From: an uncultured virus (IMG/VR IMGVR_UViG_3300028840_003539)
Taxonomy: Duplodnaviria > Heunggongvirae > Uroviricota > Caudoviricetes
Reading direction: 5' to 3' (one strand)
Virus record (IMG/VR): IMGVR_UViG_3300028840_003539
Length of the DNA stretch: 20,000 bases
How positions within the stretch are numbered: position 1 is the first letter of the stretch; each line of letters opens with the position of its first letter. The notes under the pieces were generated by a model that ran no database searches, was not told the DNA's origin, and worked only from the letters and a program-made list of their open reading frames with translations. Position numbers and translations under genes: made by a program. Shown here one piece after another: positions 2,370 to 19,549 of this stretch.

Positions 2370-3170
2370 ATGGCAGGCTGGAAAAAGCACGTAGTAGACG
2401 TGGCTCGTCTCAGCGCGCAAGTGAGTCAAGAGATGCAGAAGCATCTTGACGTCATTTTGGCAGAACGAATGTCGAAGCGCGCCGACCACGCACGTCTAGC
2501 AGCCTCGCAGGAAGCTCTCCGGCGGCTTCGTGAGCTGTGCCCAGGCATACGGGCATTTTCAGAGATGCCGCTGGAAGAAGCTGAAGCTGCAGTACGTGCG
2601 CTAGCTAGAGACAACCCGCGCGACCTGACCGAGGCCGACCTCAAGCACCTCGACGTGTCGAAGCTCGACTACGGCACGCGACGCCGGAAGCCCCGCGGGA
2701 CCTTCATCGAGCCGATCCGCAACCCCAGTGGTGCCGTCGCACGCTGCGAAGAGTTTCACGGCGACGGCGGCGCTTGTGATAGCTACGTCGAGAAGCAGCT
2801 CTGGATGCCCGGACCGATCGTGCTGATGGGTACCTGCATCGACTGCGGCTACAACGTCACCGACCGCAACAGCGAAAAGGACGGGCGCTACGTCCACGAC
2901 CACAAGTCCGGCGTCAAGCTCTACCGCCGCGCCAAGACCGGCGAGCGCTCGACGAAGACGCTCACGCCGCCCCGCCAGGTGTTCGTGCTAGGCGACTGGC
3001 TCGGCTGCACGTACGACGACGGTGACGGTGAAAAAGAACTGACAGGCTCGTCGCGCGTCAAGGCGTGCACCGACAACGGCAGGCGGCTGTTCGCCATTCA
3101 TTCGACCAAGGGCTGCCTCTACGTGATCTCGGGCGGCAGCTTCCGCATCCGAGACTGGATGTACGACTAG
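2370..3170 (+). CDS. Hypothetical protein with two NP motifs and a beta-rich C-terminal domain
   Basis: 266-aa ORF filling the gap; RDNP and IRNP motifs; C-terminal domain with EEFHG, YVHDH, GGSFRI. Confidence 0.8.
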   Translation: MAGWKKHVVDVARLSAQVSQEMQKHLDVILAERMSKRADHARLAASQEALRRLRELCPGIRAFSEMPLEEAEAAVRALARDNPRDLTEADLKHLDVSKLDYGTRRRKPRGTFIEPIRNPSGAVARCEEFHGDGGACDSYVEKQLWMPGPIVLMGTCIDCGYNVTDRNSEKDGRYVHDHKSGVKLYRRAKTGERSTKTLTPPRQVFVLGDWLGCTYDDGDGEKELTGSSRVKACTDNGRRLFAIHSTKGCLYVISGGSFRIRDWMYD

Positions 3171-3178
3171 GAGCTAGC

Positions 3179-4516
3179 ATGCCTACGAAGCCCAAGAGGT
3201 TGATGATCGAAGTCGATCTCAGGACCGAGCCAGGAACGCTGCACTCTATTCCTGCGCGGCCAGGCGACATCGTCATCGACGGCGATGGCAATGAAATCGC
3301 CACGGATCTCGACTACAACCGCCGTAAGGCTGCCATCGACTTCGTCGATCCGACGCAGCCGCCGCCGACGGAAGTAGTCGGTGACCGCTACGTCTTGAAC
3401 CACACGCCAGGAACAGTCCATCCAGGTTGGGACAATGCGACGCAAGGTGACATCGTCGAGTTCGTCGAAGGACCGCTTCCGACCCTCAATAACTGGGTCG
3501 CACAGCCCCCGGTCATCGGCTGGACGATCTATATAACGGCGCTGGACTACGACCTCCTGTTCGACAAGACCTCGACCTGGGTGCCGCGCATCCTCACAGG
3601 CGTTCCTGCAACGCGGTCAATCATAGCCGGCGCCGGCTTGGTCGGCGGCGGAAACCTGTCGGTGGACCGTACGATCGACGCCGTAGCGCATCCCGACGGG
3701 TCGATCGTCGTCAACCCGGACAACATCCAGGTCGGTGTGCTCGCGACTGATGGGCAGCACGGCGTACGCGGCGGCGGGACGCAGCACGCGTTGGCCACAA
3801 CGCTCGTCGCTGGCTTCATGTCGCCCGCAGACAAGGCGAAGCTCGACGCGGCTGCGCTGTCGTTGTCTGACACGCCACCAGTCGACGTGACCAAGTCACC
3901 TGCCGCGGCAGGCATAGCAACCGAGGCCTCGCGCCAAGACCACAAACACGACGTTGCTACTGCAACCGCGGTTGAGTTGACCGACACGACGAACGCAGAA
4001 GGGGCAGCGACGTCGCTGGCGCGGTCCGACCACAAGCACGCGCATGGAGACCGTGGAGGAGGTTCCCTGCATGCGTTGGCCACGACGCTCGTTGCCGGCT
4101 TCATGTCGCCGGCGGACAAGACGAAGCTCGACGGCCTTACGCCAGGCGGCGGCGGACAGAAGACCGAACACATCTCCATCCAGTCTGGGGACAGGGCGTA
4201 CAGCAAGACCGGGCTCGGCGTCTACTTAGTCGTCGGCCGGTTCCGTTTCCGCGGGACGACTGTAATGGGTACGCCCGCCAACATCCGAGCGAACTACTGG
4301 CAGTCAGGCACTCCTGGTGCCGCCGTGTGGTGCAGAATCCAGGACGCCACCAACAACAACACAATTTGTAGCTCGGCGACGACGAGCCAACTCGACGACG
4401 AGTTCAGAGACCTCGGCGCGTTGAGTTCCTTGCCAGCAGGCCCTGCTACTTTCGAGGTGCAGGTAAAAGCGTCTGGCGGGCAGGTCCGAATCGGCGGCGT
4501 CATCATCGAATACTAG
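3179..4516 (+). CDS. Fibre/spike-like protein (DUF2793-like segment, fibre repeats, C-terminal beta domain)
   Basis: AGGAG RBS before ATG 3179. PPP..GDRY..W..GDI..W..P..GW resembles DUF2793. AGAGLVGGGNLSVDRT, two HALATTLVAGFMSPADKxKLD repeats and two RxDHKH motifs are typical of phage fibre shafts. Confidence 0.75.
   Translation: MPTKPKRLMIEVDLRTEPGTLHSIPARPGDIVIDGDGNEIATDLDYNRRKAAIDFVDPTQPPPTEVVGDRYVLNHTPGTVHPGWDNATQGDIVEFVEGPLPTLNNWVAQPPVIGWTIYITALDYDLLFDKTSTWVPRILTGVPATRSIIAGAGLVGGGNLSVDRTIDAVAHPDGSIVVNPDNIQVGVLATDGQHGVRGGGTQHALATTLVAGFMSPADKAKLDAAALSLSDTPPVDVTKSPAAAGIATEASRQDHKHDVATATAVELTDTTNAEGAATSLARSDHKHAHGDRGGGSLHALATTLVAGFMSPADKTKLDGLTPGGGGQKTEHISIQSGDRAYSKTGLGVYLVVGRFRFRGTTVMGTPANIRANYWQSGTPGAAVWCRIQDATNNNTICSSATTSQLDDEFRDLGALSSLPAGPATFEVQVKASGGQVRIGGVIIEY
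3785..4132 (+). repeat. Intragenic 63-nt (21-aa) direct repeat, copies 3785-3847 and 4070-4132
   Basis: HALATTLVAGFMSPADKAKLD vs HALATTLVAGFMSPADKTKLD, with mostly synonymous nucleotide differences; both are preceded by HGxRGGG. Confidence 0.9.
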
Positions 4517-4525
4517 GAGCGTGGC

Positions 4526-5137
4526 ATGAGCCTGGACTACTACAGAATCTGGTGCGTGACCGACGGCAAGTACGAGTACGAGTGGAGCGAAACGGAGCCG
4601 ACAGTCTGCCCTGTCAACCCCGCGCATACGATCGACCCGACGAAGACCGCCGTAGTCGACACACGCGCGGAGCTTGACATCATCGTCGACCCGGCACCAA
4701 GCGCCATCTTGCCAGGCGCGTCTCTCGTCGTCGCCAACGATCGCCCTGCGGTAGAAGTTCAAGACGGTGGTCTTGGCTGGGGTGCTGTGGACGCGCGTTG
4801 GCCGCACGAGCTGAACGCGAAGGCGCGGCTCAAGGTCTGCATCAAGTTCATCCTGAAATCGCTCGGGACGGGCACAGTCGCTCGCATGGGCGCCCGCGTC
4901 AAGGCAGGCGGGGAAGGCGACGATTCGTCCGAGACGTGGGAAGACACCCAGTACGTCGACGCTCCTGTAACGCACACGACGCTGGGCGAGATCTTCATAG
5001 CGGAGTTCGACCTCGACGCAAGCTCGTTCAACATCAACGACGCGGTCGCGCTGCAAGTCGGACGTGACGGAGCACACGCGAACGACACCCTCGACCAGCC
5101 AGTGCAGATCTTCTGCGTGAAGGGAGTTGCGATCTAA
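4526..5137 (+). CDS. Putative virion protein: N-terminal C..CPxNxxH motif plus beta-rich domain
   Basis: AGGAG RBS; YRIWCVTD...W...PTVCPVNPAHTID; the rest shows alternating beta-strand patterns. Confidence 0.75.
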   Translation: MSLDYYRIWCVTDGKYEYEWSETEPTVCPVNPAHTIDPTKTAVVDTRAELDIIVDPAPSAILPGASLVVANDRPAVEVQDGGLGWGAVDARWPHELNAKARLKVCIKFILKSLGTGTVARMGARVKAGGEGDDSSETWEDTQYVDAPVTHTTLGEIFIAEFDLDASSFNINDAVALQVGRDGAHANDTLDQPVQIFCVKGVAI

Positions 5138-5556
5138 TGCCAGGCAACGAGACAGTAAGCAAGTCCCCGCGTGCTTTTCTGCCCGTGCAGTGGACGAAGG
5201 AAGGCTTCACGGCAGGCCAGGCGGTGGGAGTTTCGCTGCAGATCAGCAGCTTTCCAGCGTCGATCTACGAGATGTCGCTGCTCCGCGAGACGTCGCTCCT
5301 GACGGTCGCCATCGTCCTGAGCGCGGCGCCAACCGCCGGTTTCATCCGCTTCGAACTGACGAAAAACGGCGTCGACACAGGCAAGACCGTGGACATGGAC
5401 ACGGCGAAAGGCACCAGGTACATGTGGGAATTTCGTCCCGGCGAGCTGACTGGTGCCAAAGGTGACCGGATTGGAGTAAAGTGGGGCAGCAGCGGGACGC
5501 TGACGCCGAGCGGAAGCATTGACGGAGCTGTGCTTCTCGAAGTGCAGGACGCATAA
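5137..5556 (+). CDS. Small all-beta protein (putative vertex/spike-associated)
   Basis: TAATG coupling; GGGAG upstream; beta-strand pattern throughout. Confidence 0.75.
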   Translation: MPGNETVSKSPRAFLPVQWTKEGFTAGQAVGVSLQISSFPASIYEMSLLRETSLLTVAIVLSAAPTAGFIRFELTKNGVDTGKTVDMDTAKGTRYMWEFRPGELTGAKGDRIGVKWGSSGTLTPSGSIDGAVLLEVQDA

Positions 5557-5597
5557 AAACAACGCGCTCTGCCTGGGCGCGGCGAGGAGATTCGAAG

Positions 5598-7223
5598 ATG
5601 GCTGCTGGAGATACCAAGAAACCACACGTCAGTATAGATCCCGGTCAGCACAGCCCAGGCGTGCTGCCTACGCGGCCAGTCGGACCAGGCGAAATCCTCG
5701 TCGACGGCGACGGCAACCCCATCGGCGGCAGCACGATCATCATACCCGTCGATCCATCCGGCGATCTCGCGCTCGCGGAAGTCAACACGCTCGCTGAAAC
5801 TCTCCGCAGCGAATTGCTGCAGAAGATTCAGGACGCCTTCGACGGCGCTGTCGCCATGATGGAAGCGTCGGACGATGAAGTAGTCGACGAGCAAGAAGAC
5901 ACCGCGCTGGCAACCATCGAAGCACTAACGGTGAAGCTCCACGCGGAGATCACCCAGGTAGGCGAAGACGCCCTCTCGGGCGCCATCGCGCTCGTCGATG
6001 CGCTCAGGTTGGAGCTGGCGGAATCCGGCAGTGACACCGAAAGCGAGATTGCACAGTTCGAGCATGACATCTCCGAGCTGGAGCAACGTGTCACTGACTG
6101 CTTCGCTGGCGCGGTCGCACTCATCGACAAGCTCGCGCTCGACGTAGCTGTCGCGAAGCAGCACGCCACCGCGGTAGGCGCAGCACTTGCAAACGTGCAG
6201 GAATCGCTGCAGCAGGAAATCTCCGACTGCTTCGCTAGCGCGGTCGCGCTCGTCGACAAGCACACGTGCTGCGACGATGCGTACGCGCTGGTAGATGCAG
6301 CCGCCGCGGTTGCGAAGAGTGATCTGGAAGAAGCCATCGATGACGTCTTTGGTGGCACCGTCGCGCTCGTCGACAGGTCCGCGCTGAAGCTAACCTCAGC
6401 CATTCATACCGAAGCTGGCGGGCTGGTGAGCAATGCCGCCGTAGGTTTGCAAGCTGCACTAGATCAGGCGACCGATTCTCTCCAGGCCGCCATCGCCGGC
6501 GTGGAAGATCGCCTCACGGCGCGCGTCGGCAGGCTGTACGAAGACCACACGACCGACGCTACGCCAAAGGTCATCGCGACGGTTACTCCGTCGCTCACAC
6601 AAACCGTGCGCATCCTGGTCAAAATCCAGGCGCGACGAGCTGACCGGCGGCAGCACGCCGCGTACACGCTCGAAGCACTCGCGCGTGCCGTCGCGGCATG
6701 GGACACCTTGACGCTTTCCGTCGCGATCCCGAGCGACGGCGAAACAGTGACGATCGACGCCGTCACGTACACCTGGCGTGCTGCTCCGGTCGCAGCCTAC
6801 GACGTCAACATCGGTGCCGACATCCAAGGTTCGATCGACAATCTCGTTGCCGCAATCAACCTGACTGGCACAGCCGGTGTCGACTACGGCCCTGGAACGC
6901 TGCAGCATCCAACCGTCTCGGCTGTGAAGACGTCGACGACGACGATGGACGCGGTCTACAAGACGCCAGGAGTCGTAGGAAACGGAATCGTCGCGACCGA
7001 GACGATGGTCAACGGCGTTTGGACCAACGGCGGCGCAGGGCTGGCTGGTGGCTCGGACATGCTGGTGACGCTCTTCACCGACGACGACGATGTCGAAGAC
7101 GACGTCGCCTGGGACGCCACGATGGCTGCGGGAGCTGGTCAGGACGTCGAGGTCAAGGTGATTGGCAAAGCCCTCGCCGACATTCGTTGGCTGGCCGAGG
7201 TTCGCGTCATCGAGCAACCGTGA
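5598..7223 (+). CDS. Large fibre/spike-like protein: shared N-terminal module, acidic helical repeats, C-terminal beta domains
   Basis: GAGGAG RBS; N-terminal PG.L...P..PGEILVDGDGN shared with the 3179 protein; five D.(F/L)..(A/T)(V/I)A(L/M) repeats; Thr/Val/Gly-rich C-terminal half. Confidence 0.8.
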   Translation: MAAGDTKKPHVSIDPGQHSPGVLPTRPVGPGEILVDGDGNPIGGSTIIIPVDPSGDLALAEVNTLAETLRSELLQKIQDAFDGAVAMMEASDDEVVDEQEDTALATIEALTVKLHAEITQVGEDALSGAIALVDALRLELAESGSDTESEIAQFEHDISELEQRVTDCFAGAVALIDKLALDVAVAKQHATAVGAALANVQESLQQEISDCFASAVALVDKHTCCDDAYALVDAAAAVAKSDLEEAIDDVFGGTVALVDRSALKLTSAIHTEAGGLVSNAAVGLQAALDQATDSLQAAIAGVEDRLTARVGRLYEDHTTDATPKVIATVTPSLTQTVRILVKIQARRADRRQHAAYTLEALARAVAAWDTLTLSVAIPSDGETVTIDAVTYTWRAAPVAAYDVNIGADIQGSIDNLVAAINLTGTAGVDYGPGTLQHPTVSAVKTSTTTMDAVYKTPGVVGNGIVATETMVNGVWTNGGAGLAGGSDMLVTLFTDDDDVEDDVAWDATMAAGAGQDVEVKVIGKALADIRWLAEVRVIEQP

Positions 7224-7229
7224 TATAGT
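7201..7229 (+). promoter_or_regulatory. Candidate sigma70-type promoter (extended -10)
   Basis: TTCGCG (7201-7206), 17-nt spacer, TG-A-TATAGT (7221-7229), upstream of the purine-rich RBS AAGGAAAGGAAAAAGGAA. Confidence 0.5.
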
Positions 7230-7290
7230 CTGCGCGATCCGCGCTAAATGAAACACCCGCGCTGGTGCGGGTAAGGAAAGGAAAAAGGAA

Positions 7291-8691
7291 ATGGCAACCT
7301 ACGCACTGCCGACGAACATCATTCTCGGCAACAACGCAGAGAGCGTGCCCAAGGTCGTATTCCCGTTTCGGGACGCGCTCAACAAGCTGACGGGCGGCAC
7401 GGGCGTCAACCCGGTAACCGACATCGGTGACCCCGCAGCGGGCATCGACGTCAGCCCGCTGTCCTACCAGGCCGGCTCACAGGATCTGGAAGACGGGCTG
7501 GTCGACGGCGCCCTCGCGACTCCCGTCGGCGGCTACTACTTCGCCTACGGCAGCGGCAACCGCGCCACGCCGCAGAGCAACCCGTTCCTCTTCGCCCAAG
7601 TCTTCGGCATGGAGATCGCCGAATTCTTCTCGTGGTGGTACGAGGGCACGGTGGGCATCGGGGCCGAAGTCGACGCGGAGATGGTGCTGAAAAGCGTGCC
7701 AGGACCCGCGTGGGTGCCCGGGACGCTCAACGGTCTGGACTCCGGCATGAAGCTGATGGAGTGGCAGATCGCGCAGCAAAACAACGCTGGCCAGCGGGGT
7801 CTCGGTGGCAGCATCTACGACGGGAACACCGGCAACCAGAGCACCTTCCCCAACGCCCTGGGAAAACACGACTACGCCAACATGATCGTCTTCCCGATCT
7901 GCGCCACCGCCGGCGAGAGTGGTGGCTGGTTTAAGGAAGCGGTAACCCTCAAAAAGATGACGCTCGGCAAGTGGTCGGACGGCTCGATCATCAAGATCAG
8001 GCTGGCCGACGAGCCGAAGTGGATTCACTTGCTGGCATTTCCGAACGTCGCCGCGCCCGACGCCATCGACTCCACCACGCCGCTGGCCGACGTCGCCAAC
8101 GGCAACTACAACTGCCTGGAGTACAACATGCCGTTGGGCGACAGCTCGACGATCAACGGCCTGTTCCCGAACTGGCCGGACGTCGCCGACAGCATCATCG
8201 CCCTGGGCATCAAGCACTACTACATCGGGACGTGGCAGACGCCGTTCCGTGGCCGCGTGTTGCTCGTCAACAGGTGGTGGTACAACACCCTCACCATCCA
8301 GGAGCAGCAAGCCATCACGTCCGCCGCGTATCAGTGCGCGATGTCCAACCTGGCCTACATGATGCAGGGTCAGGATGCGATCATCGACCGATTCCAGCTG
8401 CTCGGAGGCGTCGTCCACGAGTCACTGCCGAGGGATTATCTCGGCGTGCTGCGGGAGGCGACCGACGAGATCATGGAGACGTACAACTCGCCCAACAAGA
8501 CGCCGCCGCCGCCGGGCTACACGGCTTCGTCCGAGGACAGCCCACGCGAGTACGAGGCGATGATGCGTCACTGCCGCGCCTTCTGCCGCCACAACTCCGT
8601 CCGCTGGCGCTCGGGCAACCTCGACCGCAGGTTCCGTTTCGGCTCGCGGCTCGACTACGTGCCGAACCTCCAACCCGACGTGAAGCTGTAG
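7291..8691 (+). CDS. Divergent TRAP transporter substrate-binding protein (DctP/TakP-like), no evident signal peptide
   Basis: The motif order matches the TakP-type family: FGM..EFFSWWYEG, IVFPICATAGESGGWFKEAV, KIRL, NGNYNCLEYNMPLGD, KHYYIGTW, LLVNRWWYNTL..EQQAI..AA, LPRDYLGVLREATDEI. Confidence 0.75.
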   Translation: MATYALPTNIILGNNAESVPKVVFPFRDALNKLTGGTGVNPVTDIGDPAAGIDVSPLSYQAGSQDLEDGLVDGALATPVGGYYFAYGSGNRATPQSNPFLFAQVFGMEIAEFFSWWYEGTVGIGAEVDAEMVLKSVPGPAWVPGTLNGLDSGMKLMEWQIAQQNNAGQRGLGGSIYDGNTGNQSTFPNALGKHDYANMIVFPICATAGESGGWFKEAVTLKKMTLGKWSDGSIIKIRLADEPKWIHLLAFPNVAAPDAIDSTTPLADVANGNYNCLEYNMPLGDSSTINGLFPNWPDVADSIIALGIKHYYIGTWQTPFRGRVLLVNRWWYNTLTIQEQQAITSAAYQCAMSNLAYMMQGQDAIIDRFQLLGGVVHESLPRDYLGVLREATDEIMETYNSPNKTPPPPGYTASSEDSPREYEAMMRHCRAFCRHNSVRWRSGNLDRRFRFGSRLDYVPNLQPDVKL

Positions 8692-8704
8692 GCAACGAAG
8701 CCAC

Positions 8705-8735
8705 GGTCGGGAGCTGCCTAGCGTGGCTCCCGGCC
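8705..8735 (+). terminator. GC-rich hairpin after the TRAP-like gene
   Basis: GGTCGGGAGC pairs with GCTCCCGGCC (10 bp incl. one G-U), 13 nt after the stop; U-tract is weak. Confidence 0.5.
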
Positions 8736-8758
8736 GGTGCTCTTCATCAAGGCACGCC

Positions 8759-9130
8759 ATGATCACCGCTGACGACGACCACTACACGTTCGGCTACGGC
8801 GCCGAGGAGTCCTGGTGGGAAGACGAGACGCCAGAGCAAGACTCCTGGTGGCAGAAGCTGATGGCGTACGACCCTGGCGTCAAGACGGCCTACGACGCGT
8901 ACAAGCAGGCACGCGCCGCCGGCATCAGTCCAGCAGAGCTGATCGATCCCGGCGTCGCGAAAGCTGCTACCGTATCCAAAGCTGCTGCAGTCGTCGCAGC
9001 CGCGCAGATAGAAGCCGAAGCGAAGAAGCGGCTTCGAAGCGCTGCTGAAGGCGGTGCGACAGCTGGCTTCGTCGTCGGCGCGCTGCTCGTCGGCGGGCTT
9101 CTCCTCTTTCTCCTCACCAAAAAGAAGTAG
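8759..9130 (+). CDS. Protein with C-terminal membrane anchor
   Basis: MITADDDHYTFGYGAEESWW...; Ala-rich helix; FVVGALLVGGLLLFLLTKKK. Confidence 0.75.
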   Translation: MITADDDHYTFGYGAEESWWEDETPEQDSWWQKLMAYDPGVKTAYDAYKQARAAGISPAELIDPGVAKAATVSKAAAVVAAAQIEAEAKKRLRSAAEGGATAGFVVGALLVGGLLLFLLTKKK

Positions 9131-9461
9131 ATAGACGTCTGCCACCTGCGCTTCGCCGGGGAGACGTCTTCTGTGGAGATGTGACTCACGTGGGAGGCGG
9201 GCGCCTTCGGGTGAGCCCGCAGCAAGCGTACTTCAGCCCCCCGCTGCTCGTCAACTTTCTTTGTATCCTCAACTACTTTTCCGTAGTCCCGCTAACTTGC
9301 TTTAGCAAAACGTCAGCACTACTACAATTTGGCCTTGAGCAGCCAAATCTCGTTCTGTAAGCTCTACTACATCAACGGCAGGCCAGCGCGACCCCCAACC
9401 GCCCTCTGGCGCTGCTACTCGGCCAGCGTTCTGTCGCAACGCTGTCGCCTTGGAGGGTCGC

Positions 9462-10934
9462 GTGCCACTCACAGCACTGCGTCTAGTCAACAAACCAGGG
9501 CGCCGCCGCCGCAAGCCCTTCCCGAGCTACAGCAGCGCCGGCGCGAAGCAGAAGAAACGGAGGAAACCCGTGCCGCAGACCAGGCGCAAGGTACTCAAGC
9601 GCGTCAAGATGGGCAAGGGCTACCGCTGGAGCTACGGCGGGAAGCTGATCCCCGAAGCGAAGGCCAGGCGCATCAAGGCCGCGCGCAAGCTCACCGGGAC
9701 CAAGCCGCGCAGCAACCCGACGCGCAAGAAGCGCACGGCTGTGAAGAAAGCGCCGGCCCGCAAGCGCAGCGTGCGCTACGTGCGCAGCCTGACCAAGCCT
9801 GCCCGTGCTCGCATTCGTCCGATCAAGAAGACGGCCGCGAAGCCTCGCACGATCAGTCGTGTCGCTGCGGCGCGTGCAAACCCAAGGCGCAAGAAGCGCG
9901 TGTCGACTGCGACGCGCAAGAAGATCTCCGCCGCTCTGAAGCGGTATCACCGAGGGACCAAGCGGGCGAGCAGCAACCCGCCGACGAAGAAAAGGAGAAA
10001 GACCGTGGCAAAGAAGACCACGCGTCGTCGCAAGACCACTCGGCGGCGCACCAGAAGCAATCCTCCCCGCAAGCCCAGGTACGGCACCAAGGCGTACTAC
10101 CGCTGGCTCGGCAAGAAGGGCGCAGCGGCGCGTCGGCGCAAGAGCGGAGCCCCGAAGCGGCGCCGCAAGACGACCACCAAGCGTCGTGTGCGCTTCAAGC
10201 GCGGCGCGACCCGCTACAGCAAGCAGCGCGTGCTGCTGCGGCGCAAGCCCCGCGGCCCGCGTGTCAGACACCGCATCCGTCGGCGAACCTACTCACGGAA
10301 GGGCCAATCGCACTACCGCTACAGGATCGTCAAGCGCAACCCAGGCCTCAAGGACATCGGGGCGCTGTTCGGCAAGGTGCTGCCGATCTACGGCGGCTTC
10401 ATCATCTCGCGCATCGGCGCGTCCGCCATCAACACGTACCTCGTGCCGAAGATGGGCGGCTTGCAGACCTCGCTCGGCAAGGCGGCTCCGCTGCTGTCGC
10501 CGGCGCTGCTGCTCGGCCTGTCGGTCTTCGCTGGCCCGAAGGTGCTCAAGGGCAAGACCGGCGGCCAGATCCTCGAAGGCCTGCAGCTCGGCAGCGTCCT
10601 GCAGATCTTCGACGGCATCGGCAAGCAGTTCATCGCGCCGGCGCTCGCCGGCCAGCCCATGCTCGCGTCGGCCTTCGGCGGCTACGACGACATGGGCGTG
10701 ATGGGCATGGGCGCCTACATGGCCGACCCGACCGGCTACAGCCTGCCGCCCGCGCACGCGACGATGGAGCCCGGCATGGGGCTGGACGTCCACGAGGCGA
10801 TGGCGCTCGACGCCTACGTCGCCGACGACGGCCTCGGCCTGAGCGTGGAGGAAGCCCTGGCTGACTCCGAGAGCGCGTACATGCAGCGCGGTGGCGCTGG
10901 TGGCTCGCTCGCCAAGACGGTGTTCACCTACTAG
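9462..10934 (+). CDS. Arg/Lys-rich protamine-like protein with hydrophobic helices and an acidic Gly/Met tail (putative genome-condensing core/membrane protein)
   Basis: GGAGG then GTG at 9462; about 290 aa almost devoid of acidic residues, with five xxNP motifs; then amphipathic/hydrophobic helices and a GMG/GLG acidic tail. A second in-frame RBS+GTG occurs at 10005. Confidence 0.8.
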   Translation: MPLTALRLVNKPGRRRRKPFPSYSSAGAKQKKRRKPVPQTRRKVLKRVKMGKGYRWSYGGKLIPEAKARRIKAARKLTGTKPRSNPTRKKRTAVKKAPARKRSVRYVRSLTKPARARIRPIKKTAAKPRTISRVAAARANPRRKKRVSTATRKKISAALKRYHRGTKRASSNPPTKKRRKTVAKKTTRRRKTTRRRTRSNPPRKPRYGTKAYYRWLGKKGAAARRRKSGAPKRRRKTTTKRRVRFKRGATRYSKQRVLLRRKPRGPRVRHRIRRRTYSRKGQSHYRYRIVKRNPGLKDIGALFGKVLPIYGGFIISRIGASAINTYLVPKMGGLQTSLGKAAPLLSPALLLGLSVFAGPKVLKGKTGGQILEGLQLGSVLQIFDGIGKQFIAPALAGQPMLASAFGGYDDMGVMGMGAYMADPTGYSLPPAHATMEPGMGLDVHEAMALDAYVADDGLGLSVEEALADSESAYMQRGGAGGSLAKTVFTY

Positions 10935-10953
10935 GCCGCGCAGCGGTCTGGTG

Positions 10954-11013
10954 AAAGTAAACCGACCCGTAGGTGTGCCTGCGGGTCACTTTGCCCTGAC
11001 TTCATCCAGGGCA
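10954..11013 (+). promoter_or_regulatory. Two tandem hairpins in the leader of the capsid-like gene
   Basis: GACCCGTAGG-TGTG-CCTGCGGGTC (10964-10987) followed by ACTTT; TGCCCTG...CAGGGCA (10992-11013). Confidence 0.6.
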
Positions 11014-11074
11014 CGTGCGTGTCGGTTTCCTCCCGACGTTAAAAAAGGACGGTAGCGCACGAGGAGAAAGAAAG

Positions 11075-11683
11075 ATGCCAAAGCTCGTTGGAGTCCGTGA
11101 AAGAAGGCACCAGCCGTTCTACGACACCCTGTTCCGTTGCAACGCGGACGGGCCGGCGCCGAGCGTCGGCCGCACCACCAGGCTCTTCGCCTCGGGGACC
11201 AGGCTCAGCGACACGTCCTGGACCAACATGAACATGGCCGGCGCGCTGCCGTCGGACAACACGTTCATCATCCTCTCGATTCGCTGCTGGATGTTCTTCA
11301 AGGGAACGACGCAGGTACCGGAGCCGTTCACCGCAGCGGACGCATACGTCCAGATGGTGCACCAGCTCTACCTCAACTTGTTCGTCGGCGACAAGCCGCA
11401 GTTCCTCGCGCCGTCGTGGTACTTCCCCGCAGGCGGTGGAATCGACGGCGACAATTCTTCGACGCCGATCGCGAACAACGGCGTGCCGTCGCAGGAGTCG
11501 ATCCTCAAGCTCGCCAAGCCGATCCCGGTGCCAGCACGCCAGCACTTCTACGTCGAAGCAACCTTCTTCGACACAGGCAGTGTCTCGGTGCTGGACAACA
11601 TCATCAACATCAACGGCGATGGCATGCCGTTGCGCGAGTGCAAGGTGATGCTCGACGGCATCCACACCCGCGACGTTCAGTAG
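11075..11683 (+). CDS. Candidate major capsid protein (single jelly-roll-like; inferred)
   Basis: Strong GAGGAG RBS; 202 aa, beta-rich; QPFYDT..TNM..GALP..FIILSI..LAKPIPVP..FYVE..VMLDG; strongly biased codons; flanked by hairpins; directly after the basic core-like protein. Confidence 0.55.
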   Translation: MPKLVGVRERRHQPFYDTLFRCNADGPAPSVGRTTRLFASGTRLSDTSWTNMNMAGALPSDNTFIILSIRCWMFFKGTTQVPEPFTAADAYVQMVHQLYLNLFVGDKPQFLAPSWYFPAGGGIDGDNSSTPIANNGVPSQESILKLAKPIPVPARQHFYVEATFFDTGSVSVLDNIININGDGMPLRECKVMLDGIHTRDVQ

Positions 11684-11743
11684 CACTTCCGCGGGCACGG
11701 CTACGCCCTTCGGGGTCACGCCTACCCGCTGTCGTGTGCCTCT

Positions 11744-11772
11744 GCCCCCCAGGGTACGCCCTGGGGGGCTTT
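11744..11772 (+). terminator. Perfect 11-bp hairpin with short U tract
   Basis: GCCCCCCAGGG-TACG-CCCTGGGGGGC then TTT. Confidence 0.65.
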
Positions 11773-11830
11773 CCTCTACCAAGGGTAGAGAGGTGCCGCC
11801 CACCATCAGCGGCCAAGGCAGGAGAAAACG

Positions 11831-12466
11831 ATGGCCCCGCAGCGGAGGAACAACAACGCTGGCGCTGTCATCGCCAACATGGCGATGCGCCTCCAGCATC
11901 ACGAGGCGCAGCTGCAGCAGCTCACCGCGCTTCAAAAAGCCACCGCGGATGCACCCAAGTGGATCGAGCAGATTCCTGGTCGCCGCGTGCCGTTCGGTGG
12001 CGTCATCGACATGCCGATCCCGGCAAACTCAACCTCGATGGTCAGTGGGCTCTTCAATGTCGCCGAAGACGGCCCGTTCGTCCTCACCGCCGTTGCCCTC
12101 TTCTACAAGCTGACCGAAGGCGACTTCGCAGGCATCTGGGGCTACGCGACGGCTGCTAGCTCACGCATCATTTCGACCTACCCCGCGGTAGGGTTCGTCG
12201 GGATGGACAAGCCGCACGTCACCAGCGGCGGCCTGCAGATCGTCGACCGGGGCAGCGACCGCCTCTGGCAAAGCAAGGAGCTTCCCACGTCGCTGTTCAG
12301 CGAAGAAGCTGGCGGCGTCTACGTGCTGCCCGTCGCGTGTCTGTTCGAACGCAGCAGCGCGGTCGAGGCGACGTTCGCGCCTGGCGTGGCGGTCGAGTAC
12401 GCGGGCCTGGTGGAGTGCATCCTGCTCGGCTACAAGATCGTCCAAGGACAGTCGTACCAGCCGTAA
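11831..12466 (+). CDS. Second beta-rich capsid-like protein (candidate single jelly-roll paralog)
   Basis: AGGAG RBS; N-terminal helix, then DGPFVLTAV..LQIVDRGSDR..LPVACLF..VEATF..CILLGYK. Confidence 0.6.
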   Translation: MAPQRRNNNAGAVIANMAMRLQHHEAQLQQLTALQKATADAPKWIEQIPGRRVPFGGVIDMPIPANSTSMVSGLFNVAEDGPFVLTAVALFYKLTEGDFAGIWGYATAASSRIISTYPAVGFVGMDKPHVTSGGLQIVDRGSDRLWQSKELPTSLFSEEAGGVYVLPVACLFERSSAVEATFAPGVAVEYAGLVECILLGYKIVQGQSYQP

Positions 12467-12477
12467 GGAGGCGTTAG

Positions 12478-13149
12478 ATGGCCGCCCCACGACGGCATGG
12501 ACATCCTTGGCGCCAGGCGCCGACGCCTACGGAGCGTGGCGGTGACCCCACTGCGCTTCGCGGCGAGCTGACGCCCGTCGGGCCGGCGCCTTCCAGAGCC
12601 ACCACCTTTCCCGTCAGGGAGATGGACGCCTGGATTCGGACGCTCCCACCCAAGCGCATCACGAACCTGGTGGTCAGCGGCGAGGTGAGGTACGACCACA
12701 CGCTAAACGTCGGGCAGAAGCTCTCGATCGTGCTGGCCCCACACGTGCCGCGGGAAGGCTACGTGTGGGTCATCAACGACATCGACTACTACGCGACGAT
12801 ACCGCCGGATGGACTGGTGGGACCGCCGCAGAACCTGGCCCCGGAAGCGCTGGTCGGCATCCTCCGCTGGGAGTTGCTGTTCGGCGGCACGGCGCCGCTG
12901 CTGACGCCCGCGCAGCGGATGTCGCCGTACGCGCCTGGGCCTGCGCAGTCGACGTCGGGCTGGCCGTGGCTGAACACGCCGTTCGGTCCACAGCGGATGC
13001 CAGCTTTCGCACTGTATTCGGCGGGCACCGAGGAAATCCGCGTCGACGTCACCGTCGAGGCTCTGCCGCGCTTCCCGATCACCCGGTTGGGCGCAAACCT
13101 ACACGGCTTCACGGTAGACGCGTCGCACTTCCCGACCACCTGGATGTGA
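12478..13149 (+). CDS. Third beta-rich capsid-like protein
   Basis: AAGGAGG RBS; Pro-rich N-terminus; VPREGYVWVINDIDYY..LRWELLF..IRVDVTV..ANLHGF. Confidence 0.55.
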   Translation: MAAPRRHGHPWRQAPTPTERGGDPTALRGELTPVGPAPSRATTFPVREMDAWIRTLPPKRITNLVVSGEVRYDHTLNVGQKLSIVLAPHVPREGYVWVINDIDYYATIPPDGLVGPPQNLAPEALVGILRWELLFGGTAPLLTPAQRMSPYAPGPAQSTSGWPWLNTPFGPQRMPAFALYSAGTEEIRVDVTVEALPRFPITRLGANLHGFTVDASHFPTTWM

Positions 13150-13155
13150 GTCGGG

Positions 13156-13313
13156 GTGTTGGAGGGCTTAGAAGGCAGTAATACGGCGATCTTGCGCAAG
13201 AACGAGAGGCTTAGGGGGTCGACTCGTAACTAGCGCGCGCAACAGCCGGAGCGACACCGGCACTGGGGCGGACAACCCTTTGCTGTACTACTGCCTTCTT
13301 GGCTCTCTGACAT
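13156..13313 (+). ncRNA. Unassigned highly structured intergenic RNA
   Basis: Long closing stem 13156-13189 / 13280-13313 (~31 bp, several G-U pairs on + strand, perfect AGAAGGCAGTA/TACTGCCTTCT core) enclosing several short hairpins. Confidence 0.55.
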
Positions 13314-13327
13314 GGTAGGATGGTGAC

Positions 13328-13744
13328 ATGTCACGATACGTCCTCGAACAGGGTCGTCGTCACAACCCCACCGCGTTTGCTCCACGTCCGTACCCGCGAG
13401 GCCAAGTCGGCTGGCCGGCCCAGCTGCTGACGCCCAACGCGAGCACGTACGTCGCGCCAGGCAGCACGCTGACCCACCTTGGGCAGGATGAGCCCAAGGA
13501 CAACAGCAAGCTGATCATGGGGCTCCTGCTCATCGCTGCGGCCATCGTCCTCTGGAAGCTAATCACGCCCGGCGCAGGGCGCAACCCCGGAGGCAAGAAT
13601 AAGGTCGCCCGCGTGTTCAAAGGCGCGAGCGGCTGGTACTACAAGCTTGCGCGCAAGAAGGCGCGTCGCTACGGCCCCTTCGACAGCGAGTGTGCCGCGA
13701 CCGAGGCAGCCGAACGCAAGGGCTACAGCGTAGTGGAGGATTAG
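13328..13744 (+). CDS. Single-pass membrane protein with two NP motifs
   Basis: AGGA RBS; RHNP, HLGQ, TM LIMGLLLIAAAIVLW, GRNP, then a small basic GWYY...YGPFDSE..A domain. Confidence 0.8.
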   Translation: MSRYVLEQGRRHNPTAFAPRPYPRGQVGWPAQLLTPNASTYVAPGSTLTHLGQDEPKDNSKLIMGLLLIAAAIVLWKLITPGAGRNPGGKNKVARVFKGASGWYYKLARKKARRYGPFDSECAATEAAERKGYSVVED

Positions 13745-14660: not shown

Positions 14661-15227
14661 GTGCCCTACGAACCGCTGGTCTACGTCGACGAAGGAGGCG
14701 AAGTCTTCGCCAACCCGCTGTCGTACGGTAGGAGCAAGCGTCGTTTCGTCGAGTTCCGGCGGGGTCGTGCAGCAGAACCTGGTCGATCGTACCGTGGGTT
14801 GCGTGTGCAGGTTGGTCTGATTCGCGAGCCCGGCTACGACCCGAAGGCTGCACCACACATCCGTGGCTCAGCGGACGTCTACGCACTGATTCGCGAGCAC
14901 GCCTACGATGACGTGCAGGAAGCCTTCTACGTCGTCCTGCTCAACGCACGCTCGCAAGTCCTCGGCATCTACGAAGCGCATCGCGGCACCATGACTGGCG
15001 TCGAGGTGCAACCGGCGGACGTGTTGAGGCCCGCCCTCGTTTCAGGTGCGGCAGCCATCGTCGTCGCACACAACCATCCAAGCGGCGACGCAGACCCGAG
15101 TCACGACGACAAGGCGTTGACGAAGCGCCTCACAGAAGCATGCAAAATCGTCGGTGTGCAACTTCTCGACCACCTCGTGATCGGCGAAGACAGCTACGTC
15201 AGCTTCGCGGACCGCGGGCTGCTCTGA
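14661..15227 (+). CDS. radC: RadC-like JAB/MPN domain protein
   Basis: QEAFYVVLLN...AHNHPSGDADPSHDDKALTKRL...LLDHLVIG..YVSF: intact E..HxH..S..D JAMM motif of the RadC family; lacks the N-terminal HhH part. Confidence 0.92.
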   Translation: MPYEPLVYVDEGGEVFANPLSYGRSKRRFVEFRRGRAAEPGRSYRGLRVQVGLIREPGYDPKAAPHIRGSADVYALIREHAYDDVQEAFYVVLLNARSQVLGIYEAHRGTMTGVEVQPADVLRPALVSGAAAIVVAHNHPSGDADPSHDDKALTKRLTEACKIVGVQLLDHLVIGEDSYVSFADRGLL

Positions 15228-16438
15228 TGCGCATGGAGCCTACGCTTTTTCTCGTCGGCCAGCTGCGCGAGATCATCCGCGAGCTGAACAGCGGTAGGTT
15301 CGCCTGGGACCTGGTCGCTGACACAGCCGTCACGATCGCTGGTGAAGGGCTCGACGTGGGCGAGTTGGGCGACCGCCTGCGCGAGGCCTACGAAGCCCGC
15401 AGCAAGCCGTTGGTGTGGCGTGCGATCACAATGACGGGCTGGCGGTGCTGGGAGCTGCTGCAGAAGCCTCTCGAAGCGGTCCCTGCTGCGGTCACAGATG
15501 AAAGTACGGACCGGCGACTCAGCCTCGGCATCACTGTCTTTGAGGGCGATGATGGACCACCCTTGGTGTCTGCGTGGTTTCACTGGCCGCGCGCGTTCTA
15601 CACCGAGCGTGTCGCAGCGGTGTCGAGCCGGGACGTGCGCTCGTTGATGTTCGGCGTGAGTTGGGCAGGCGCGCTGTCCGACGATGCGTTCGACATCTTC
15701 CATGGTTCCGTTGTTCCATCAGCGCGGATGCAACCGGCGCCGCGGCGATGTGGACGCCCACCCGCTGGGCGAGTCGTGGTGCGGCTCAGCGGCAACCGAT
15801 TGCCTGTAGGTGCGTCGGACGGCTACGAGGAAGCCTTCCTAAGCGTCCTTGGCGTCTACCGTGACTTGCCGAAGCTGCTTGAGCAAACGGCGAGGTTGAT
15901 CGATGCAGCTGCTGGGGTACGCGAAAACCCGCGGACGACAAAGATCAGGTTGTACCCTGACCTTCCCACTGGCGAGCCTCACTTCGAGGACGTAACAGCT
16001 GTCAGTCCACGCGGCGTTCCAGACTGGATGTTAGTCTCGGCGCCCACCGAAAGACACCGAACGCGCACGGGGCGCGTTCCGCCGGGTGGCTGGACGATCA
16101 CGCACAAGCCAACAGGGCTTGCGATCCTCCGCGGTCTGACCAGGGCAGACGCTGCACTCGCAGCTCGTGTGATCGCGCGCGAGGCACCCTGCCTGAAAGA
16201 CGTAGACGAAGTAGTCACCGACTGGTCACGCGACCCGCTGCGTTCCGCCTTCGAACTGATAGAGAAGCTGCGAAGCCTGCTCTCGCGCAAAGCGGACGTC
16301 TTGCGCGAAGGGCAGAACGTGCCGATGATTGCCGAGCTGATCCAGTACGACCTGATAGCGCCGCGCGAGCTGCAGAAGCTACCGCCGGCGACGCAGGTGG
16401 CGCTCGACGCCTGGCTGGAAACGGCGAAGGTGCGCTGA
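15227..16438 (+). CDS. Hypothetical multi-domain protein
   Basis: TGATG coupling at both ends; 403 aa; internal RENP; WTITHKPTGLAI segment in the C-terminal part. Confidence 0.7.
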   Translation: MRMEPTLFLVGQLREIIRELNSGRFAWDLVADTAVTIAGEGLDVGELGDRLREAYEARSKPLVWRAITMTGWRCWELLQKPLEAVPAAVTDESTDRRLSLGITVFEGDDGPPLVSAWFHWPRAFYTERVAAVSSRDVRSLMFGVSWAGALSDDAFDIFHGSVVPSARMQPAPRRCGRPPAGRVVVRLSGNRLPVGASDGYEEAFLSVLGVYRDLPKLLEQTARLIDAAAGVRENPRTTKIRLYPDLPTGEPHFEDVTAVSPRGVPDWMLVSAPTERHRTRTGRVPPGGWTITHKPTGLAILRGLTRADAALAARVIAREAPCLKDVDEVVTDWSRDPLRSAFELIEKLRSLLSRKADVLREGQNVPMIAELIQYDLIAPRELQKLPPATQVALDAWLETAKVR

Positions 16439-16947
16439 TGCCCGTTCATCCCCTCGCAGAACGCAAGCTGCCGCCGAGCCCCGGCACGAAGTTCGGAGCT
16501 GCACGCAGCGCAGCCGGCCGGCCGGCCGAGTGCGGCGGCGGGCACTGCGGCGTCGACCTGTACTACTGGAAAGCGGGGCTAGACCCGAACACAGGCATCG
16601 GCCGCCCCGTCTTTGCTGTCGCTGCCGGCAAGGTGATCGCGGCGAGCGAAAGCGATTCAGCGGGCAAGTACGTCTGGATCAAGCACGACAGCTTCCGCAG
16701 CCACTACGTTCATCTTGACAGCTACTTCGTCAGGACAGGCGACACGGTTGCCGAGGGGCAGCAGATCGGCACGTTGGGCCGCACGGGCATCACGACCGAC
16801 CCAGCGCATCTACACTTCGGCCTGTCGACGCTGGCCGGCAAATACTACGACCCTGAGCCCAAACTGCGCGTCTGGCCGCTCGTCGGTGGCGGCATCGGCT
16901 TGCTGCTCGTCGCCGCAGCGGTGCTCTACTGGTACTGGAAGAAGTGA
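16438..16947 (+). CDS. M23 family peptidase with C-terminal membrane anchor
   Basis: HCGVDL (HxxxD), GRPVFAVAAGKV, YVHL, V..GD.V..GQQIG..G.TG, HLHF (HxH); C-terminal GIGLLLVAAAVLYWYWKK. Confidence 0.92.
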   Translation: MPVHPLAERKLPPSPGTKFGAARSAAGRPAECGGGHCGVDLYYWKAGLDPNTGIGRPVFAVAAGKVIAASESDSAGKYVWIKHDSFRSHYVHLDSYFVRTGDTVAEGQQIGTLGRTGITTDPAHLHFGLSTLAGKYYDPEPKLRVWPLVGGGIGLLLVAAAVLYWYWKK

Positions 16948-18871: not shown

Positions 18872-19549
18872 ATGCCGGGGAAGCTGGGCTTCGACCCGAA
18901 CTGCGAGGTGTGCCAGGGCGACGGCTACCTCGACCTCTACACCGGGCACTTGGAGCAGTCGGTCATGCCGCCCCGGTGCCCGGCGTGCAACGCCACGCCA
19001 GTCGAAGTCAAGCCGGCGTGGCCTGACGACGACGCTGACGGCTGGCTCGACGGCGTCACGCGCAAGCCTGCACGCTTCACCGGCGGCAAGCTCGACCCGA
19101 TAACAGTCGACACCATCGTGATCCACCGCTACCACCGCGGCTTCTGGAATGCTGGGCCGCGCTACTTCGCCAACCCGACGACGAGCGACCGACGAACCGG
19201 CGAGATCATCCCACGCTACGTCTCAGCCCACTTCAGCGTGCACAAGCCGGGCTGGTTGCGCATGCTGACGCAGCACGCGCCACTGAGCGTCGTGTGCTGG
19301 CATGCGCCGCCCTACAACTTCAGGTCGATCGGCATCGAGCACGATGCCGGGCCGAAGGGGCTCAAGGAGCCGTGGTGGGAGGAGACAATCGTCGAGAGCG
19401 TGAAGTTGGTCGAGGCGTTGCTGAAGCAGCTGCCCAACGTCAAGCAGCTCGTCTCGCACCGCTACATCTGCCCGAAGAACCGTCGTGACCCGGGCAAGAG
19501 CTTCCCGTGGGAGCGGTACGAGCACTTCGGGCTGGAGATCATCAGGTAG
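18872..19549 (+). CDS. N-acetylmuramoyl-L-alanine amidase (Amidase_2) with N-terminal Zn finger; putative endolysin
   Basis: GGAGG RBS; IVIH, VSAHF, WHA, NFRSIGIEH, SHR, RRDPG..FPW motifs; N-terminal CEVCQGDG...CPAC. Confidence 0.9.
   Translation: MPGKLGFDPNCEVCQGDGYLDLYTGHLEQSVMPPRCPACNATPVEVKPAWPDDDADGWLDGVTRKPARFTGGKLDPITVDTIVIHRYHRGFWNAGPRYFANPTTSDRRTGEIIPRYVSAHFSVHKPGWLRMLTQHAPLSVVCWHAPPYNFRSIGIEHDAGPKGLKEPWWEETIVESVKLVEALLKQLPNVKQLVSHRYICPKNRRDPGKSFPWERYEHFGLEIIR

Follow-up and report, generated by a model that had tools for sequence, protein, structure and literature searches.

How a solute-binding protein that carries no export signal comes to be encoded by a tailed virus, and what it might do there, is the question raised by a 20,000-nucleotide stretch of DNA (hereafter the window) from the uncultured virus IMGVR_UViG_3300028840_003539 (IMG/VR; Caudoviricetes). 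An open reading frame (ORF) at 7291-8691 on the + strand of the window encodes a 466-aa protein, P0001, which we show to be a very divergent TakP-type solute-binding protein of the tripartite ATP-independent periplasmic (TRAP) kind. P0001 begins exactly where a mature exported protein would begin, and the leaderless clade to which it belongs persists in one subclade of a lineage of uncultured viruses, its gene lying in a block that is conserved and biased in codon usage. We tentatively propose, at somewhat less than an even chance, that P0001 is a ligand binder made late in infection and borne on the virion.

Textbooks describe solute-binding proteins as the extracytoplasmic components of uptake systems. 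The clade described here appears to have shed its export signal (its transporter is likewise not seen), has kept its pocket and is maintained by viruses, all of which points to a second life of the fold. If P0001 is particle-borne, it would define a new class among phage modules for receptor binding or adhesion and could offer a ready-made ligand-specific scaffold. Phage structural proteins carry surface display domains, such as the immunoglobulin-like domains found on tail tube or decoration proteins; we know of no periplasmic-binding-protein fold in such a display role. A literature search brought up neither that role nor a phage TRAP binding protein without a leader, the term 'DctP' being confounded by the nucleotide dCTP.

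Identity and fold of P0001

The gene is described by the following feature.

7291 to 8691 (+): coding sequence of P0001, a leaderless homologue of TakP-type TRAP solute-binding proteins (ORF call, family profile against PDB, AlphaFold2, Foldseek, VIA)

Searched on its own, P0001 falls below the cut-off of the Pfam DctP family (PF03480; E 0.015, 15.1 bits, cut-off 23.4), finds 7ug8 in PDB at E 0.0019, and matches nothing in NCBIfam or PADLOC. A search of 5.8 billion proteins returned 17 relatives, all metagenomic and 31-56% identical to P0001, and a profile of the 18 family members (alignment A1) matched TRAP binding proteins of known structure at 1.6e-14 (5cm6), 3.5e-14 (7ug8), 6.4e-11 (4pet) and 4e-8 (TakP, 2hzk), the match to TakP spanning nearly its full length. 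PF03480 itself was matched at E <= 0.1 by 14 of the 18, the best at 5.9e-10.

The predicted structure leads to the same family. The AlphaFold2 model of P0001 (predicted local distance difference test score, pLDDT, 71.5; predicted template modelling score 0.73) matched 7ug8 and TakP in Foldseek at E ~1e-10 with probability 1.0, and in VIA it superposed on TakP 2hzk with a Z of 25.9 and a root-mean-square deviation of 3.5, with 319 of 335 TakP residues aligned. The 50 entries listed by VIA, each at Z of at least 18.7, are all TRAP-type binding proteins or sensors built from one. Homology to TRAP binding proteins and the two-lobe binding-protein fold are thus established, as a first-pass annotation made from the sequence alone had supposed when it named P0001 DctP/TakP-like and suggested comparison with TakP: the periplasmic-binding-protein II fold is present, and it is of the TRAP/DctP kind.

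The several insertions that had been read from the sequence are real, lying at about residues 121-150, 166-190 and 404-418. Model confidence is low in the insertions at 166-190 and ~404-418 and in the tail at 439-466; this C-terminal tail, of interest because proteins of the TakP-like subfamily form a helix-swapped dimer, is conserved in the family, and its pLDDT is below 50 in the monomer model. In the homologue P0030, the same loop that carries an insertion of P0001 holds one of ~145 aa (residues ~105-250) composed of three helical repeats, for which cultured phages gave no match.

TakP, the alpha-keto-acid TRAP binding protein of Rhodobacter sphaeroides (PDB 2hzk/2hzl; PMC1839085), is the best point of comparison, and its subfamily takes in the ketoacid binder 7ug8, 4pet, 5cm6 and the lactate binder 2zzv. 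P0001 shares the two-lobe fold of TakP over nearly the whole chain and, as detailed below, the carboxylate-binding arginine and two cation-site positions. It differs from TakP in being encoded by a virus, in having neither a signal peptide nor, within 22.7 kb, a visible DctQM partner, in its three extra loops, in two pocket residues, and in overall sequence, identity being 12-18%.

Relatives beyond metagenomes were sought in several collections. Among viral models in BFVD nothing related was found (best E 0.016), and searches of cultured phages with P0001, scans of species genomes, and scans of IMG/VR with either A1 or an alignment of the deeper clade (A4) returned no binding protein.

Absence of a leader and origin of the clade

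The absence of a Sec, twin-arginine or lipoprotein signal is confirmed. Position 7291 is the first ATG, GTG or TTG after the upstream in-frame stop; there is no possible start further upstream and therefore no hidden leader. The N-terminus has no basic or hydrophobic leader, and residue 1 of the model aligns with TakP residue 31 (VIA).

Searched exhaustively with the profile, 1.84 billion representative proteins yielded 436 hits at E <= 1e-3, of which 88 were at <= 1e-10 and 26 at <= 1e-30. Close relatives all begin at residue 1 with the same motif, and the 32 members of the clade defined below all share the start residue. Maximum 12-residue hydropathy within the first 60 residues is 0.35-1.93 across the close relatives, and a leader is absent from all clade members (32/32); more distant relatives carry leaders of either the Sec type, with hydropathy of 2.45-3.49, or the twin-arginine type. 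The exported relative P0038 aligns with the first residues of the clade through the stretch that follows its Sec signal.

The first-pass annotation had named phylogeny against cellular relatives as a check, and a maximum-likelihood tree of 71 rows was built accordingly (IQ-TREE quick, LG+G4; four rows shorter than 300 aa were dropped). All signal-less sequences form one clade (32 of the 71 rows; Shimodaira-Hasegawa-like approximate likelihood-ratio support 98), and this clade falls within a larger one of 53 rows (support 100) that also contains Sec- and twin-arginine-bearing relatives. The sequences branching next outside the clade, namely P0038, P0040, P0043, P0047, P0050 and others, all metagenomic, share with it the mature N-terminal motifs and the C-terminal tail and, unlike it, bear Sec or twin-arginine leaders. 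This nesting indicates that the signal-less clade derives from exported relatives and arose once. The tree was rooted with four typical TRAP proteins that failed to group on a single side of any branch, and the direction of change from exported to signal-less is for this reason inferred and not proven. One exported relative, P0046 (511 aa), has a hyper-basic N-terminal extension of ~90 aa before its twin-arginine leader.

Conservation of the binding site

In TakP the ligand is contacted by Arg177, through a salt bridge to the carboxylate, and by Tyr100, and the co-ligand cation is held by Gln156, Glu214, the carbonyl of Trp215, and Glu240 (PMC1839085). These positions were mapped onto P0001 by hidden Markov model alignment, and conservation was counted over 31 clade members. 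The arginine of the 'KIRL' motif, the retention of which had been put forward as a check, is R237; it aligns with Arg177 and is kept in 31/31. Gln156 corresponds to E209 and Glu214 to E277, each kept in 30 of the 31 members, and D284, an aspartate near the pocket positions, is invariant (31/31). Of the three side chains, acidic or amide, with which TakP holds its cation, P0001 thus keeps two. The third, Glu240, is replaced by T317, with Q316 adjoining, and glutamate is lacking at this position throughout the 31 core-clade rows and the 17 other relatives nearest to them (P0036-P0053). Tyr100 is replaced by R91, and an arginine is found at this position in close relatives.

Near-invariance of pocket residues among sequences that are only 31-56% identical argues for a working pocket. 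Judged from the alignments, the pocket is under constraint, and a carboxylate is the likely ligand of P0001.

Flanking signals and codon usage

The window has a G+C content of 60-69%, and nearly all of its long ORFs lie on the + strand. Three elements flank the P0001 gene.

7221 to 7229 (+): putative extended -10-like motif TGnTATAGT (TGATATAGT), read from the sequence, overlapping the stop codon of the upstream gene
7271 to 7288 (+): purine-rich Shine-Dalgarno run with three AGGA motifs, immediately 5' of the ATG (sequence)
8704 to 8736 (+): G+C-rich 14-bp hairpin without a U-tract, 13 nt past the P0001 stop (folding against shuffles)

The ribosome-binding site and the downstream hairpin described in the first-pass annotation are both present. 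The hairpin folds at -38.5 kcal/mol (z -3.9), and none of 200 shuffles folds as well; the terminator scan did not call it as a terminator. A promoter belonging to the gene itself, also described there, is unproven: the consensus scan called no sigma-70 promoter upstream of 7291, and the -10-like motif TGATATAGT is the sole candidate. Small hairpins at 7232-7272, upstream of P0001, were no better than shuffles (z -0.75).

The preference for codons ending in C or G, which had been likened to that of a capsid-like gene, is likewise borne out. With a third-position G+C content (GC3) of 0.893 and an effective number of codons (Nc) of 35.5, the P0001 gene falls in the top tier of codon bias along with a gene for a polybasic protein at 9450-10934 (GC3 0.881, Nc 33.1) and a gene for a jelly-roll protein at 11075-11683 (GC3 0.877, Nc 33.5). 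A place in this tier fits high expression of the P0001 gene.

Neighbouring genes and their conservation

The genes next to P0001 that recur in other loci are as follows.

5598 to 7223 (+): P0020, 541 aa, with a G/P-rich N-terminus, five or so helical coiled-coil repeats and a C-terminal module (translation; C-terminal homologues in L006 and L009)
8759 to 9130 (+): P0022, a small tail-anchored membrane protein (translation)
9450 to 10934 (+): P0021, a polybasic membrane protein whose C-terminal half is conserved in L003, L004 and L006 (translation, tblastn)
11075 to 11683 (+): hallmark protein of ~200 aa with a predicted jelly-roll fold (P0167, family A2; homologues, AlphaFold2, fold matches)
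16438 to 16947 (+): M23 peptidase, a cell-wall hydrolase conserved in L006 and L009 (Pfam PF01551, E 3.8e-22; synteny)

A metagenome scan located the binding-protein gene in the window's own virus (L001) and in eight other loci (L002-L009), and synteny was assessed by tblastn of window proteins against L001-L009 together with a reading of the ORFs of these loci; L002 and L007 were too short to be informative. In L003-L006 the gene order is a YifB-like AAA+ ATPase, the binding protein, a 115-aa tail-anchored membrane protein, a 200-aa membrane protein, a 153-aa protein, a ~90-aa tail-anchored protein and the homologue of the polybasic membrane protein; L005, which ends before the conserved part of the last of these, shows the first six genes. 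The binding-protein gene lies a few kb upstream of polybasic-protein homologues (in L005, of the 153-aa protein) in four of the eight other loci. L003, L004 and L006 continue with the jelly-roll protein, 57% identical to that at 11075-11683, and two to three further conserved genes, and the series in L006 closes with a coiled-coil protein and the M23 peptidase. L009 contains the coiled-coil C-terminal module, the binding protein and the M23 peptidase. Two copies of the binding protein stand in tandem in L008 (184-2217); they are divergent, with 42% and 55% identity to P0001, and the contig ends within the second copy, so that L008 is likewise too short to show the gene order. In L003 and L006, A/E/K-rich tail-anchored proteins analogous to P0022 are encoded downstream of the binding protein.

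P0021 (~490 aa) consists of K, R, T and P almost entirely in its first ~290 residues, followed by a C-terminal half of Gly-rich membrane segments and an acidic tail, and may be a membrane-anchored DNA condenser; an Atlas search with it was uninformative. Its homologues lie at 3769-5211 in L003 and at 4158-5657 in L006.

The absence of a dctQ or dctM partner, claimed from the window, is borne out by scans of ORFs in the window and in L001, L005 and L006; for the element itself, which is ~76 kb long, it holds within the 22.7 kb that were read.

A module shared with tail proteins

Upstream of P0001, the protein P0020 ends in a module that recurs in other proteins.

6690 to 7220 (+): C-terminal module of P0020, residues 365-541 (BLASTP, tblastn, Pfam)

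The binding-protein homologue P0018 (514 aa) carries near its C-terminus a 116-aa insertion (residues 395-510) that is 48% identical to the C-terminus of P0020 (BLASTP, E 9e-29). The module was found in 24 proteins of 297-947 aa. Two of 23 module homologues contain Phage_tube_2 (E 1.6e-19 and 2.7e-24), and one contains a PKD-like domain. By tblastn, two proteins annotated as major tail proteins matched the module, one in Stenotrophomonas phage Sonora (E 2e-6, 48% identity) and the other in Xanthomonas phage DoCa5 (E 2e-5), as did gp68 of PhiJL001 (E 2e-3); in Sonora the genes for the tail chaperone and the tape measure follow the module-bearing gene directly. Its presence in Phage_tube_2 and major tail proteins therefore makes the module a domain of exposed virion proteins, which one member of the binding-protein clade has acquired. 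Structural look-alikes in the Atlas belong to phage cement, stabilisation and tube clusters (TM scores 0.60-0.73) and are to be taken as leads only. A prediction of a complex between P0001 and residues 318-541 of P0020 scored 0.00 in both runs, which were made without controls. The module, ~116-170 aa long and promiscuous, has a Flagellin_IN-like motif and also occurs at 3001-3309 of L027.

The jelly-roll hallmark and the virus lineage

The jelly-roll protein is the most conserved gene product of the lineage, with more than 275 homologues of 47-79% identity on contigs of up to 112 kb. Its AlphaFold2 model (pLDDT 80.9) is a beta-sandwich, the best fold match of which, itself weak, is the SPV1 capsid protein 6oj0 (Foldseek E 2e-3; VIA Z 7.3 over 130 residues). 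Further VIA matches, to satellite panicum mosaic virus, P23-77 VP17, HHIV-2 and PRD1, are mostly viral capsid jelly rolls; at Z below 8, such matches may reflect merely a common arrangement in the model. The A2 profile found nothing among PDB sequences, cultured phages yielded no match to the protein, and profile comparison revealed no relation between this family and the two genes that follow it.

The protein is also present on 12 IMG/VR contigs (L010-L021). Ten records were looked up, with sizes of 75-104 kb, and nine have direct terminal repeats and nine are at least 90% complete (CheckV). A complete genome of 86,334 bp (G001; L022-L026) is almost blank in annotation: among its 92 ORFs of at least 90 aa (greedy caller), Pfam at E <= 1e-4 recognised only GH25 with PG_binding_1, a dual-specificity phosphatase, DUF1643 and a weak Cas12f-like TNB match, and PHROGs, run on 49 of the longer ORFs, gave ParB-like matches, a transposase-like match and a few families of unknown function. 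Neither database recognised a terminase, portal, capsid or polymerase family in G001. Viruses of 75-104 kb, most of them with direct terminal repeats, thus appear to form an essentially undescribed lineage marked by the jelly-roll hallmark; being almost entirely unannotatable, it merits structural annotation.

The binding protein is not general in this lineage. It is missing within +-10 kb of the hallmark gene in all 12 IMG/VR loci (tblastn, the method that detected L002-L009), and a profile search, for which no positive control was possible, did not find it in any of ten whole related records. It is therefore an accessory of one subclade and not an essential particle component of the lineage.

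Proposed role and competing explanations

The first-pass annotation had seen in P0001 a repurposed, non-exported, transporter-less TRAP binding protein, and the fold, the missing leader, the monophyly of the signal-less clade and the conserved binding-site arginine all support this. As to its purpose, the explanation that we favour, tentatively and a little short of even, is that P0001 is a late-made, virion-borne ligand binder. P0001 would be made abundantly in the cytoplasm late in infection and would leave the cell as part of the virus particle; an export signal would not be needed because the protein would exit on the particle. Exposed on the particle, it would be a subunit that binds a ligand and serves as an adhesin or as an accessory in receptor binding, its target being a molecule that bears a carboxylate and lies on the host or close to it. 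A virion-associated role is favoured indirectly by synteny, by codon bias and by the tail-protein module of one family member, and traits reminiscent of surface proteins, namely the variable loop insertions of P0001 and P0030 and the tandem divergent paralogues of L008, are consistent with it. P0001 would resemble phage display domains in two respects: P0018 bears a module of the kind appended to major tail proteins, and a ligand-binding fold borrowed from cells would be shown on the particle. A fuller version, in which these hitherto undescribed viruses of 75-104 kb have taken over a transporter-type binding protein and carry it on the particle as a device for attachment or entry, its pocket recognising a carboxylated host surface molecule or docking on a host TRAP permease, we consider rather unlikely as it stands.

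Several observations weigh against carriage on the virion. The case for presence in particles is indirect, and the module ties the binding proteins to tail proteins through one of 32 clade members. The gene directly upstream of the binding protein in L003, L005 and L006 encodes an AAA+ ATPase and not a fibre-like protein. The surroundings had been described as virion genes, and Pfam, PHROGs, NCBIfam and PADLOC do not allow the neighbours to be annotated as such, almost none of them having a match. The fold match of the jelly-roll protein to a capsid protein is weak, the third cation ligand of TakP is not kept, and the gene is missing from the related loci and whole records described above.

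The strongest competitor, possible though doubtful in our estimation, is that P0001 stays in the cytoplasm and binds a small acid there, such as an alpha-keto acid, lactate or another signal, to sequester it or hand it to a viral protein. Conserved binding-site residues and the absence of a leader would both be expected of such a protein, its closest solved relatives bind small keto or hydroxy acids (PMC1839085), and the AAA+ ATPase (YifB/Mg-chelatase-like) directly upstream in L003 (4-576), L005 (5087-5995) and L006 (15-335) could be read in the same way. However, the ATPase is absent from the window and no conserved enzyme partner adjoins the gene; insertion of a tail-protein module is hard to explain for a cytosolic protein; and stoichiometric sequestration of an abundant central metabolite seems implausible.

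An entry adaptor would be a special case of the virion-borne binder, close to the docking role suggested in the first-pass annotation: carried at the particle surface or ejected from it, P0001 would reach the periplasm and dock, closed on its ligand, on the membrane component of a host TRAP transporter to guide genome entry. Docking in a closed state would call for an intact fold and an intact binding site, both of which P0001 keeps, and carriage on the particle could explain how a leaderless protein reaches the periplasm; since this chain is inferential throughout, we think it improbable. Nor is it at all probable that the fold has been re-used for structure only, as a building block or scaffold of the particle with the pocket a relic. 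High codon bias and position in a conserved block would suit a structural protein, but the pocket residues are nearly invariant across sequences of 31-56% identity and the gene is missing from related complete genomes.

Lower still we place a moron-type factor, that is, a self-contained cassette with which a resident virus alters host transport or blocks superinfection. The -10-like motif and the hairpin that flank the gene would give it the look of such a cassette, but no promoter was called by the scan, the composition of the gene is that of its neighbours, a cytoplasmic binding protein cannot serve a permease that faces the periplasm, and neither Pfam nor PHROGs showed an integrase or a lysogeny gene in the part that was read. 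Superinfection exclusion, which the first-pass annotation had listed among possible functions, finds nothing in its favour, PADLOC matches being absent. Finally, the idea that P0001 is a normal cellular TRAP binding protein whose contig was mis-binned or is chimeric, or whose start was mis-called, is contradicted and hardly credible, for although the homologue P0017 was deposited under a Planctomycetota metagenome-assembled genome, no upstream start is possible, the start residue is common to all 32 clade members, independent assemblies agree in their synteny with viral hallmark genes, and direct terminal repeats are present on records that hold relatives of the hallmark gene.

Other features of the window

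Informative Pfam or PHROG matches were obtained for just four of the 30 ORFs of the window, namely the M23 peptidase given above, the two proteins listed below, and the ORF at 3065-4516, which has weak tail-fibre-like PHROG matches. Rfam and tRNA scans of the window were empty, and a search of cultured phages with the DNA of positions 5000-13500 found nothing.

14661 to 15227 (strand not stated): RadC-like JAB domain protein within a block that is otherwise without annotation (PF04002, E 1.8e-38)
18872 to 19549 (+): Amidase_2 endolysin-like protein (Pfam PF01510, E 1.8e-13; PHROG endolysin families)
11744 to 11769 (+): terminator-like hairpin of 11 pairs, 10 of them G-C, followed by TTTCCTC, after the jelly-roll gene (terminator scan)

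The last of these is the strongest terminator-like hairpin in the window. A 319-nt non-coding stretch at 9131-9449, 5' of the polybasic gene, has a G+C content below that of its surroundings and may be a promoter or regulatory region.

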